9,656 nt of DNA, taken from IMG/VR virus record IMGVR_UViG_2534681992_000031. The stretch is one strand, 5' to 3'. The notes below the pieces were generated by a model. It made no database searches. It worked only from the letters and a program-made list of their open reading frames with translations, and was not told where the DNA came from. How positions within the stretch are numbered: position 1 is the stretch's first letter; every line of letters begins with the position of its first letter. Of this stretch, positions 2,174 to 6,607 are shown piece after piece. Both the position numbers and the translations under genes were made by a program. The DNA is from a virus (Duplodnaviria > Heunggongvirae > Uroviricota > Caudoviricetes).

Positions 2174-2195
2174 TTCTATTCCTCTGTTGGATTGG

Positions 2196-2275
2196 TGGGG
2201 GACAGTATACACAGAAAAAGCACAAATAAAACTCTTGACGTGGGCCACACCTAAAGAATATAGTGGGCCACACCT
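2196..2275. promoter_or_regulatory. Divergent promoter region: rightward sigma70-like promoter with two operator-like 9-bp palindromes; candidate leftward promoter for the RHH gene
   Basis: -35 TTGACG (2235-2240), 18-bp spacer, -10 TATAGT (2259-2264). Identical 13-mers gtgggccacacct at 2240-2252 and 2263-2275, each holding the palindrome GTGG-G-CCAC, cover the spacer and the -10/+1 region. On the minus strand a TATACT -10-like hexamer lies at 2204-2209. Confidence 0.45.
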
Positions 2276-2372
2276 TGAGGTTATCAAGGTGCATAAATGC
2301 AAAGCCCCGCAAGTGTCGTTACCACTCGCAGGGCTTCTAACCACCAACGATAGCAAGATTATCGAGGCAGCT

Positions 2373-3520: not shown

Positions 3521-3895
3521 ATGAAACTTAAATATTCTGGCTTAACTGCCAGTGGCAACACTCACCCTAAATTTACGCGCGGTGATATTTACCGCGACCA
3601 GTACGGCGGCACGGTAATGATTAAGGGCGTGGAAGAACGGCGCGTAACCTACCGCCGTGAAGGTTACGAATATGATTGCGTGATGCCTGTTTATCAGTTC
3701 CGGCGTGATTTTTCTCTGGTACAGACCGCGCCGCATAACGTGCCCACCAGCAACGCCAGGGCACGGGCAAACATCCAGAAGCTGAAAACCATGATTAACG
3801 GATTCAGGGGTAAAAATGAAACTGGCACCGAACGTAAAACAGCAGTCACGCGGCATAAAACACAAAGAAACAGAAGTCATTATTTTTGCGGGTAG
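3521..3895 (+). CDS. Hypothetical protein, 124 aa; 3-prime end overlaps the primase start by 80 nt in another frame
   Basis: ATG at 3521 with GGAG 10 nt upstream; ORF runs to TAG 3893-3895. Basic C-terminal tail. The unusually long overlap lowers confidence in the exact extent. Confidence 0.4.
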   Translation: MKLKYSGLTASGNTHPKFTRGDIYRDQYGGTVMIKGVEERRVTYRREGYEYDCVMPVYQFRRDFSLVQTAPHNVPTSNARARANIQKLKTMINGFRGKNETGTERKTAVTRHKTQRNRSHYFCG

Positions 3896-5570
3896 TGATG
3901 CCTGGGCACACGCGAAACAATGGCAGGAACATGATGCGCGTATGGCCGGAGATAATGAGCCTCCTGTGTGGCTTGGGGAGCAGCAGTTATCAGAACTGGA
4001 TAAGCTGCAAATTGTGCCGGAAGGCAGAAAATCCGTGCGCATATTCAGGGCCGGATATCTTGCGCCAGTAATGATAAAGGCGATTGGCCAGAAGCTGGCG
4101 GCGGCAGGCGTACAGGATGCAAATTTTTACCCTGATGGTATGCACGGTCAGAAGGTGGAGAACTGGCGCGAATATCTGGCCCGTGAGCGCCAGAATCTTT
4201 CTGATGGTCTGGTCATTGAGCTTCCGGTAAAGCAAAAGGCGCAACTTTCGCAGATGGCGGACAGTGAGCGCGCGCAGCTGCTTGCCGATCGCTTTGATGG
4301 CGTTTGCGTACATCCTGAAAGTGAAATCGTTCACGTATGGCGTGGCGGGGTATGGTGTCCGGTCAGCACAATGGAACTGAGCCGCGAAATGGTGGCGATC
4401 TATTCAGAGCACAGGGCCACTTTCAGCAAGCGCGTAATCAATAACGCCGTGGAAGCGTTAAAAGTTATTGCCGAACCAATGGGCGAGCCGTCCGGCGATT
4501 TGCTGCCGTTCGCCAATGGTGCGCTTGACCTGAAAACGGGGGAATTTTCCCCGCACACGCCGGAGAACTGGATCACCACGCACAACGGCATTGAGTACAC
4601 GCCACCAGCACCAGGGGAGAACATCCGCGATAACGCGCCAAACTTTCATAAATGGCTTGAGCACGCAGCCCGAAAAGACCCGCGCAAGATGATGCGTATA
4701 TGTGCCGCGCTGTACATGATTATGGCGAACCGGTACGACTGGCAGATGTTTATTGAGGCCAGCGGAGACGGCGGGAGCGGTAAAAGTACATTCACACACA
4801 TAGCCAGCCTTCTGGCAGGGAAACAGAACACGGTAAGCGCTGAAATGACATCGCTTGATGATGCTGGTGGACGTGCGCAGGTTGTCGGGAGTCGTCTTAT
4901 CGTCCTGGCAGACCAGCCGAAATATACAGGCGAAGGAACGGGCATCAAGAAAATCACGGGCGGCGACCCCGTGGAAATAAACCCGAAATATGAAAAGCGT
5001 TTCACGGCGGTAATCAGGGCGGTGGTGCTGGCGACCAATAATAACCCGATGATATTCACCGAACGGGCCGGAGGTGTGGCACGTCGTCGCGTGATTTTCC
5101 GTTTCGACAATATTGTTAGTGAGGCCGAAAAAGACAGGGAACTACCGGAAAAAATTGCGGCTGAAATCCCCGTCATTATCCGCCGCTTGCTGGCGAACTT
5201 TACCGACCCTGAAAAGGCGAGGGCTTTACTACTGGAACAGCGTGACGGTGATGAAGCACTGGCAATAAAGCAACAGACGGATCCGGTTATTGAGTTTTGC
5301 CAGTTCCTGAATTTTCTGGAGGAAGCGCGCGGCCTGATGATGGGTGGCGGTGGTGATTCAGTGAAGTACACGACCAGGAACAGCCTTTACCGCGTCTATC
5401 TGGCGTTTATGGCATACGCAGGCAGGAGCAAACCGCTAAACGTGGCTGAGTTCAGCAAGGCCATGAAGCCAGCGGCGAAAGTTTACGGGCATGAATATAT
5501 TACGCGAAAAGTTAAGGGAGTAACGCAGACCAACGCAATTACAACAGACGATTGCGACGCGTTTTTATAA
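3816..5570 (+). CDS. Replication primase/helicase, P4 alpha-like / D5-type P-loop NTPase, 584 aa
   Basis: Strong RBS CAGGGG five nt before the ATG at 3816; Walker A GDGGSGKST, Walker B-like LIVLADQ, and an N-terminal primase-like region (EVIIFAGSDAWAH, RAGYLAP resembling the EGYATA primase motif). Sits just upstream of an iteron cluster. Confidence 0.85.
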   Translation: MKLAPNVKQQSRGIKHKETEVIIFAGSDAWAHAKQWQEHDARMAGDNEPPVWLGEQQLSELDKLQIVPEGRKSVRIFRAGYLAPVMIKAIGQKLAAAGVQDANFYPDGMHGQKVENWREYLARERQNLSDGLVIELPVKQKAQLSQMADSERAQLLADRFDGVCVHPESEIVHVWRGGVWCPVSTMELSREMVAIYSEHRATFSKRVINNAVEALKVIAEPMGEPSGDLLPFANGALDLKTGEFSPHTPENWITTHNGIEYTPPAPGENIRDNAPNFHKWLEHAARKDPRKMMRICAALYMIMANRYDWQMFIEASGDGGSGKSTFTHIASLLAGKQNTVSAEMTSLDDAGGRAQVVGSRLIVLADQPKYTGEGTGIKKITGGDPVEINPKYEKRFTAVIRAVVLATNNNPMIFTERAGGVARRRVIFRFDNIVSEAEKDRELPEKIAAEIPVIIRRLLANFTDPEKARALLLEQRDGDEALAIKQQTDPVIEFCQFLNFLEEARGLMMGGGGDSVKYTTRNSLYRVYLAFMAYAGRSKPLNVAEFSKAMKPAAKVYGHEYITRKVKGVTQTNAITTDDCDAFL

Positions 5571-5854: not shown

Positions 5855-6169
5855 ATGCGCATACATCAAAATCACTTAACAAACATGCCAGCCGAAAACA
5901 TGAATCAGGGGCGACAAATGACCAAAATTCGCAGAGACAGAACAGAGCCAAAATATAAAGCGTTAGACATGACTGAGCATACCTTAAAGGTGGCAATCAG
6001 AACGATAGACCGCCATGCGGGGGAAGGATACGCGAAAGCACATCCCGACCTGATAAGCGCATTCATGACCACGACGGCGGCAAACTTTGCCACGCTGACA
6101 GAACGGGAGATTGCCGAAGCGGAACAGGTAACAACCATCAACGTTAAAACCGGAGAGGGGGCAGTATGA
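5855..6169 (+). CDS. Hypothetical protein, 104 aa, translationally coupled to the downstream SSB-like gene
   Basis: GAGGGGG RBS before the ATG at 5855; its stop TGA 6167-6169 overlaps the ATG at 6166 (ATGA). No recognisable motif. Confidence 0.5.
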   Translation: MRIHQNHLTNMPAENMNQGRQMTKIRRDRTEPKYKALDMTEHTLKVAIRTIDRHAGEGYAKAHPDLISAFMTTTAANFATLTEREIAEAEQVTTINVKTGEGAV

Positions 6170-6576
6170 CGGCACAGATAGCCGCTTACGGGCGGCTGGT
6201 GGACGACCCGCAGGTAAAACAGACCAGCAAGGGCACACCAATGACGCTGGCTCGTATGGCGGTATCGCTGCCATGCAGCCAGGCACAGGACGGACAGGCG
6301 ACGTTATGGCTGTCGGTCATCGCATTTGGCAAGCAGGCCGACTACCTGGCTAAACATCAAAAAGGCGATGTTGCCAGCGTATCCGGCACGATACAGGTTA
6401 GCCAGTGGACCGGACAGAACGGGGAAACGCGGCAGGGTTATCAGGTTATCGCAGACAGTGTAATCAGTGCCAGTGCTGCCCGTCCTGGCGGGAGCCGACG
6501 CAAGACCACAGGCACACAGGGTAATCAGCCACCAGCTGGAGGCGATGACCCCTACGGTGACAATATTCCTTTCTGA
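6166..6576 (+). CDS. ssb: Single-stranded DNA-binding protein (SSB-like OB-fold), 136 aa
   Basis: OB-fold pattern comparable to bacterial SSB (LWLSVIAFGKQADYLAKHQKGDVASVSGTIQVSQWTGQNGETRQGYQVIADSVI), a Gly/Pro-rich linker, and an acidic C-terminal tail ending DDPYGDNIPF (compare the canonical DDDIPF). Confidence 0.75.
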   Translation: MTAQIAAYGRLVDDPQVKQTSKGTPMTLARMAVSLPCSQAQDGQATLWLSVIAFGKQADYLAKHQKGDVASVSGTIQVSQWTGQNGETRQGYQVIADSVISASAARPGGSRRKTTGTQGNQPPAGGDDPYGDNIPF

Positions 6577-6584
6577 ACATCATG

Positions 6585-6607
6585 GCCGGAGAAAATCCGG
6601 CTTTTTT
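6585..6607 (+). terminator. Intrinsic terminator downstream of the SSB-like gene
   Basis: Stem GCCGGA(6585-6590)/TCCGGC(6596-6601), loop GAAAA, followed by TTTTTT (6602-6607). Confidence 0.6.

Follow-up and report, generated by a model that had tools for sequence, protein, structure and literature searches.

A small RHH repressor with operators that overlap promoters is a classical kind of regulatory system. The closest precedent for the locus described here is immI of phage P22 (Mnt and Arc; Pmnt and Pant), where the gene of a small RHH repressor regulates itself and points away from the operon under its control, with operators that extend into core elements of two back-to-back promoters. 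Arc and Mnt use one operator of ~21 bp, which they bind as tetramers on two adjacent half-sites. Short repeat units in both orientations have precedents in omega (pSM19035) and CopG. In the satellites known as PICIs, those of Gram-positive bacteria (SaPIs) are held quiescent by Stl/Rpr, which is encoded divergently from the replication module (PMC6092414). For the Gram-negative PICIs, the paper describing their prototype EcCICFT073 called the global repressor "unclear".

The window, i.e., the whole stretch of 9,656 bp that was analysed, is matched by the closest complete E. coli genome with 98% identity across 95% of its length. It encodes an integrase, AlpA, a D5-type primase, SSB and a fusion of a ClpP protease to a major capsid protein, the gene set of a Gram-negative PICI, and judging from the sequence its genes are ordered as in Gram-negative PICIs and in relatives of these that form capsids. 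Plus-strand genes for the tyrosine integrase (1-1239) and for AlpA (1649-1858) are followed on the minus strand by a 59-aa gene of the YlcI/YnfO family (1994-2173, MATGTTNAKSQALKARVPHEIVNEMELVKESGESTSQFIIASMQGEIKRRQRRKAKEQE), a predicted RHH repressor. The plus-strand Icd-like ORF at 2373-2579 (NF033153, 1.5e-19), whose product bears the PHROG label 'transcriptional repressor', is the first gene of a rightward operon. It is followed by overlapping small ORFs, DUF4222 (3521-3895), the primase (3816-5570) and SSB (6166-6576), all on the plus strand and the last three identified by Pfam matches. The operon ends at 6584-6602, the first plus-strand terminator in the terminator scan, and the protease/capsid fusion lies 3' of it. 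The same scan found a hairpin with a T-run resembling an intrinsic terminator at 1886-1905 for the leftward ylcI transcript (minus strand), and the leftward transcript of the window would end here. The plus strand of 1886-1905 is without a T-run, so alpA transcripts are not expected to stop there. In EcCICFT073 (L058:10243-10416) and in L003:370-1256, ylcI is followed by one to three more small hypothetical genes on the same strand, so that in some islands several genes can share the leftward transcript as an operon.

Our reading, to which we give a probability of about 0.75, is that YlcI is an RHH repressor that would act through three GTG-N5-CAC operators to silence the replication operon of this E. 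coli satellite. The first-pass annotation had proposed a divergent promoter with two operators for the RHH protein, and most of its description stands. The 59-aa ORF runs divergently on the minus strand from its ATG at 2173-2171, and 2174 is the first intergenic base. The proposed rightward promoter TTGACG-18-TATAGT (P_R; -35 at 2235-2240, -10 at 2259-2264) was found again by an independent promoter scan, in which it scored highest of all sigma-70 matches across the window (10/12). The 13-mer GTGGGCCACACCT is present exactly at 2240-2252 (O1) and 2263-2275 (O2), 23 bp apart start to start, with no third exact copy in the window. O1 occupies the promoter spacer from the last base of the -35, with an 11-bp unit at 2240-2250, and O2 covers the -10 and the expected +1 from the last two bases of the -10, with an 11-bp unit at 2263-2273, much as had been claimed. 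The count of two sites was right for the 13-mers and overlooked a third, degenerate copy, OL (2195-2205, plus strand, GTGGGGGACAG), which has three mismatches to O1 and a core that matches its own O1 and O2. The 9-bp palindrome GTGG-G-CCAC is also real in both 13-mers, but its proposed role as the recognition element does not hold, as only the GGCCA class has it, and operators of other specificity classes lack a palindrome in the corresponding register.

OL is found 45 bp 5' of O1. It shares 2 nt with the end of the leftward -10, and the +1 expected for leftward transcription falls within it. Its position over the leftward -10 mirrors that of O2 over the rightward -10, each covering the last two bases. 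The leftward promoter (P_L) has a poor -35, and its -10 was missed by the consensus promoter scan; we therefore infer the -10 to be AGTATA at 2204-2209 (TATACT on the minus strand). The sequence CAGTATAC at this -10 is almost invariant among the loci compared below. A further 11-mer of the form GTG-N5-CAC, GTGTGGTACAC, is found at 2117-2127 inside ylcI, where it encodes the invariant R-V-P-H motif and is thus probably a coding coincidence.

The intergenic region was first aligned with those of six diverged E. coli relatives, and the comparison was then based on 46 loci from one-genome-per-species Enterobacterales and 80 from IMG/VR, of which 124 were analysable and 94 non-redundant. In this first alignment, the repeat is kept as a pattern and not as a sequence, as both copies change together; examples are GTGGGCCACAC, GTGGCTGACAC and GTGTTCAACAC, each present twice. 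A third copy is located upstream, adjoining CAGTATAC. The candidate binding unit, GTG-N5-CAC, spans 11 bp and in most cases has C/T-T after it. In the wider set of relatives, the -35 (TTGAC, TTGAA or TTGAG) is at a constant 64 nt from the ylcI start codon and O1 begins directly 3' of it. The OL-O1 distance is 45 bp in most relatives (81 of 90) and 44-46 bp otherwise. The distance from O1 to O2 is either 22-25 or 34-36 bp. In 93 of the 94 elements, a copy of the element's own O1 with 0-2 mismatches is present in the O2 window, and operators of other classes are found there at one mismatch or fewer in 5 of 6834 comparisons. Roughly half of the loci have O2 as the reverse complement of their O1, in keeping with recognition by a protein of symmetric arms around an asymmetric core.

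Short direct repeats beside replication genes are typical of iterons, and the repeats could instead be origin iterons, arm sites of an integrase or excisionase, or products of chance. We regard this as extremely unlikely, as elements with the same core carry replication proteins as unlike as a D5-type primase, a RepA helicase and DUF927, and integrases differ between loci or are missing from them. When 2174-2372 was shuffled 5000 times with dinucleotides preserved, an exact direct repeat of at least 13 nt appeared twice; this chance probability of ~4e-4 is for the window alone and becomes negligible given the conservation in 94 non-redundant relatives.

Some loci depart from the common layout. 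In two YlcI variants of 101 aa (L004:1169-1474 and L005:1169-1474; phrog_6522), 42 residues are inserted before the conserved basic C-terminus, and O1 and O2 are more degenerate, with 2-3 mismatches. In Xenorhabdus japonica and X. indica (L030 and L052), OL is fused to the sequence that normally follows O2, GGTGGCTGACACC..., in the first 60 nt upstream of ylcI, and ~70 bp including both promoters are deleted. This deletion apparently arose by recombination between operator repeats, and these two regulatory regions are probably dead.

The N5 core changes in concert at OL, O1 and O2, and it tracks residues 11, 12 and 14 of YlcI. By comparison of sequences, and not by biochemistry, we distinguish 13 classes of these residues with distinct cores, each core being repeated three times per element. 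QAK and QSK go with GGCCA, KKE and RKE with GCTGA, QST with TAAGA, QMT with TATTT, QLT with TGTTT, QTA with TTCAA, QKQ with GAnnC, QKH with GAACA, KRD with TCCGA, QQN with CGATT, and TQA with GTTAG. While positions 11, 12 and 14 vary, positions 13, 15 and 17 are hydrophobic or small, and little or no variation is seen at K9, S10, R16 and P18. The specificity for the N5 core seems to be set mainly by residues 11, 12 and 14 of a putative beta-strand (Q-A-K in the window), with the invariant R16 and the conserved K9 and S10 probably reading the constant arms.

Because ylcI adjoins its sites, the correlation could be caused by linkage, and this was checked via the neighbouring genes. Among eleven proteins of the window, YlcI is the only one that occurs in every locus and ranks with core class. 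The Icd-like protein was rejected as the reader of the core, as it can be 90-95% identical to that of the window at a different core and 49% identical at the same core. The replication proteins differ within one core class, and the integrase was rejected by the same co-variation analysis, as integrases differ between the loci or are absent from them.

AlpA deserves closer attention, since it is the sole experimentally established regulator of Gram-negative PICIs (PMC6092414, PMC11773190) and alpA (1649-1858) lies 320 bp from the repeats. The repeats could then be sites at which AlpA, as an activator and possible antiterminator, switches the rightward operon on. However, AlpA does not co-vary with the core: in E. 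coli, AlpA proteins that are 97-100% identical accompany GGCCA, GCTGA, TAAGC and TTCAA cores, and in Xenorhabdus, AlpA is 100% identical between elements with TATTT and TAAGA cores. Conversely, the operators of the window and of EcCICFT073 are identical while their AlpA sequences, compared by eye, are visibly different. In many operator-bearing loci AlpA was not detected within 3 kb, and the spacer and the -10/+1 are a poor position for an activator. AlpA is therefore very unlikely to be the protein that the repeats serve, and YlcI is the candidate that fits the co-variation.

In several genomes with more than one island (Xenorhabdus innexi, X. santafensis, X. mauleonii, Xenorhabdus sp. IM139775 and Yersinia pekkanenii; loci L015/L038, L021/L039, L023/L036/L044, L018/L028/L034 and L035/L041), the islands fall in different operator classes. 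Fragments in X. indica are a possible exception to this pattern. The presence of different classes within one genome is suggestive of immunity groups, with p ~0.09 by a rough hand estimate that is not significant.

YlcI of the window matches the NCBIfam model NF041551 (YlcI/YnfO N-terminal domain) over residues 9-50 with 65.5 bits (cutoff 30; E 3.2e-18), its RefSeq homologues bear the YlcI/YnfO family name, and it also matches PHROG families of unknown function. Searches of Pfam and of PDB sequences with the window protein gave no match. Its homologues have sub-threshold Pfam matches (CB_ParB_C, 0.0045; PSK_trans_fac, 0.03), and no significant match to RHH families of Pfam or to RHH proteins of known structure was obtained. 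The similarity to RHH proteins is instead one of overall fold, with ~45 residues that fit the order of N-terminal strand, helix A, tight turn and helix B. In RHH proteins, which are obligate dimers, this strand pairs with that of the second subunit to give the ribbon that reads DNA. In 45 homologues, the G32-E33-S34 turn and R16-V17-P18 are invariant or nearly so, corresponding to the G-x-S/T and R-hydrophobic-P signatures of RHH proteins, the first a turn that caps the N-terminus of helix B and contacts phosphate, the second marking where the strand ends. In the monomer model, residues 8-16 are a low-confidence helix (pLDDT 51-71), while variable residues (12, 14) take turns with conserved ones that are hydrophobic or small (13, 15, 17), as a strand would have it. 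By hhalign, YlcI aligned in register with Arc (pairwise E 0.002; probability of 14%, i.e., no significant homology) and with CopG (E 0.022). Aligning the strands RVPHE and RWPRE places A12, K14 and R16 of YlcI on Q9, N11 and R13 of Arc. Taken together, this points to YlcI as an RHH-like protein.

The family also has members outside satellites. YlcI (prophage DLP12) and YnfO (Qin) of E. coli K-12 have the NF041551 N-terminal domain in common with the YlcI of the window, and a sequence pattern like that of RHH proteins is seen in K-12 YlcI as well, ...TRNIRFPNQMIEQINIALEQKGSGNFSAWVIEA... (L056:8252-8446). Unlike that of the window, K-12 ylcI is found in a lambdoid prophage, divergent from nohD near cos, and by eye its upstream region is without a GTG-N5-CAC triplet. 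Our literature search returned no published function for K-12 YlcI. When satellite YlcI proteins were searched by tblastn against 50,697 phage records, no match was found. There appears to be no account of the YlcI family, of its recognition pattern or of the place it has in Gram-negative satellites; the literature search for YlcI, YnfO, DUF3950 or an RHH repressor in PICIs was of incomplete coverage, and an earlier description elsewhere is possible.

Binding by YlcI could also serve a mainly architectural or centromere-like role, as for the RHH proteins ParG and omega, or that of a Cro-like late factor. The sub-threshold match to the RHH C-terminal domain of centromere-binding ParB points in this direction, as do the non-palindromic repeats used in both orientations by omega-type proteins, and the strictly kept OL-O1 spacing could mean a higher-order complex. 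Such a role is nevertheless unlikely, because in every relative all three sites are on core elements of two divergent promoters, and partition is not an evident requirement for an integrated satellite. Promoter geometry explains the fixed distance from OL to O1 equally well.

Repression by YlcI agrees better with the position of the sites, and it can be formulated as a mechanism. Two back-to-back promoters would be directed outwards, P_L to ylcI and P_R to the Icd-like gene and the replication operon. A YlcI dimer of the RHH type would recognise the 11-bp GTG-N5-CAC unit, in the window GTG-GGCCA-CAC. By occupying the two perfect sites, O1 in the P_R spacer and O2 at the -10/+1, it would block access of RNA polymerase and hold the replication operon silent, while the weaker OL at the -10/+1 of P_L would give negative autoregulation at higher repressor levels. 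Two sites on an early promoter and one on the promoter of the repressor is the textbook arrangement for tight repression with negative autoregulation. The repressor/operator reading of the first-pass annotation is thereby supported and sharpened on comparative grounds, with three sites in a conserved layout whose cores co-vary with the 59-aa protein.

Derepression could follow either of two routes. In the first, read-through driven by AlpA from upstream would pass antisense through ylcI. A Pseudomonas AlpA homologue is a processive antiterminator (PMC7969949). As the T-run of the hairpin between alpA and ylcI is on the minus strand only, alpA transcription could hypothetically cross ylcI in antisense and then the operators, and continue into the operon. 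In the second, a helper phage would supply an anti-repressor.

Compared with P22 immI, the window has three separate 11-bp sites that are 22-45 bp apart and in either orientation, and the genes controlled would be the Icd-like and replication genes of a satellite and not the antirepressor of a phage. The omega heptads are contiguous, whereas the YlcI sites are spaced and have symmetric GTG/CAC arms around an asymmetric core, and there is no sequence homology between the two proteins. With Stl/Rpr, YlcI shares a place divergent from the replication module and a presumed role in satellite quiescence, which is a functional analogy. Stl is a large HTH protein that is encoded in the same direction as int and is derepressed when it binds a protein of the helper phage, while YlcI is 59 aa, RHH-like and encoded opposite to int and alpA. 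YlcI has no similarity to HTH repressors and falls outside the Stl/Rpr family, and by analogy it may still work like Stl.

The predicted leader of the P_R transcript (2272-2372) is structured (z = -3.0). It starts near a perfect 8-bp inverted repeat (2271-2291, plus strand; CACCTTGA at 2271-2278 and TCAAGGTG at 2284-2291), which begins in O2 and shares its 3' arm. This repeat is found in relatives with the 22-25-bp O1-O2 spacing and is absent from the 35-bp class; in the transcript it would fold into a 5'-terminal stem-loop, or it would be a further protein site. Further downstream, per-sequence folds gave a leader hairpin at 2302-2336 (plus strand) with a tail, TCTAACCAC, to 2345. The per-sequence folds were used because the MAFFT leader alignment is out of register in some rows, so that its pair counts understate covariation. 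The hairpin forms in nearly all Enterobacterales relatives though the stem sequences differ (GCCCCGC/GCAGGGC, GCCCGG/CCGGGC, GCCTCAG/CTGAGGC and GCTCGGCGG/CCAGCCGAGC), while the inner GUG...CAC stem is near-invariant and the tail UCUAACCAC is conserved. It is without a U-run and has no match to an Rfam family.

A structured leader before an Icd-like first gene is also a feature of P1/P7 immI (c4-icd-ant) and P4 (CI), whose antisense systems are likewise upstream of icd, and such RNAs have been reported in Gram-negative PICIs (PMC10111431). The repeats could thus act as RNA, either by giving rise to an antisense immunity RNA of the P4 seqA/seqC-CI or P1 c4 type or by being its target. One E. 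coli relative (L006:1767-1968) does have bona fide C4, isrK and a1b1 target elements downstream of the same promoter; they lie inside an inserted 'ash family' pseudogene, which separates the promoter and leader presumed to be under YlcI control from the Icd-like gene. A single transcription unit can therefore combine immunity by protein with immunity by RNA. Searched with the C4/CI antisense-RNA models (RF01695, RF01394, RF03163), this relative served as positive control (C4 82 bits, isrK 75 bits), while the window gave no Rfam match at E<=1, C4 and isrK included. In addition, O1 is upstream of the predicted start of either transcript, and the inversion of O2 in about half of the relatives would abolish complementarity to one RNA, which rules out a role in RNA pairing. 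The co-variation of the cores with protein residues also argues against RNA, and we find this explanation hardly credible. Unlike P1/P7 and P4, the window is without a C4-type RNA, and a protein repressor at the promoter appears to be in control.

The same arrangement is found in EcCICFT073 (NC_004431.1, between roxA and phoQ), which is syntenic with the window. Its YlcI/YnfO protein is identical to that of the window at 57 of 59 residues, the O1 and O2 13-mers are identical, OL and the leader are the same, and the Icd-like gene is present. The locus tags of the two small genes, C_RS30120 and C_RS30125, are out of series, which suggests that these genes were added on re-annotation after the original annotation. 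Our search of the EcCICFT073 literature, incomplete in coverage, returned no report of a repressor and no description of ylcI or its sites. That YlcI-type RHH proteins are the master repressors of a large share of Gram-negative PICIs and capsid-forming relatives, EcCICFT073 included, with at least 13 specificities set by a code of two to three residues, is a tentative generalization that we hold to be slightly less probable than its negation. If true, several satellites could share one cell without cross-repression, and induction would be either a bypass, by AlpA-dependent read-through convergent with ylcI, or an inactivation by a helper-encoded anti-repressor. If YlcI is a repressor, the missing half of the regulatory switch would be supplied and the YlcI/YnfO family would gain a function. 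The relation between strand residues and 5-bp core would then be a recognition table testable by mutagenesis, the classes would provide a set of small orthogonal repressor/operator pairs, and the operator core could sort satellites into immunity groups straight from sequence.

The leader hairpin accompanies the Icd-like gene even where the upstream cassette is different. The capsid-forming prototype, an EcCIEDL933-type element in E. coli O157:H7 Xuzhou21 (L053:2803-3546), is without ylcI and has a co-directional hypothetical ORF of 247 aa between alpA and the Icd-like gene, with the leader hairpin at the 3' end of the ORF. In E. coli TUM1881 (L054:2248-2578), the same slot is occupied by a different RHH-like protein of 63 aa (...TFQIRISKELRQQVNEAATSDGLTLGNWFKELA...), and the 139-bp intergenic region has an inverted pair of GTACGTACGTAAC repeats followed by the same leader hairpin and Icd-like gene. 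The contents of these two islands indicate that alpA and the leader/Icd-like module are separated by a regulatory cassette that can be swapped.
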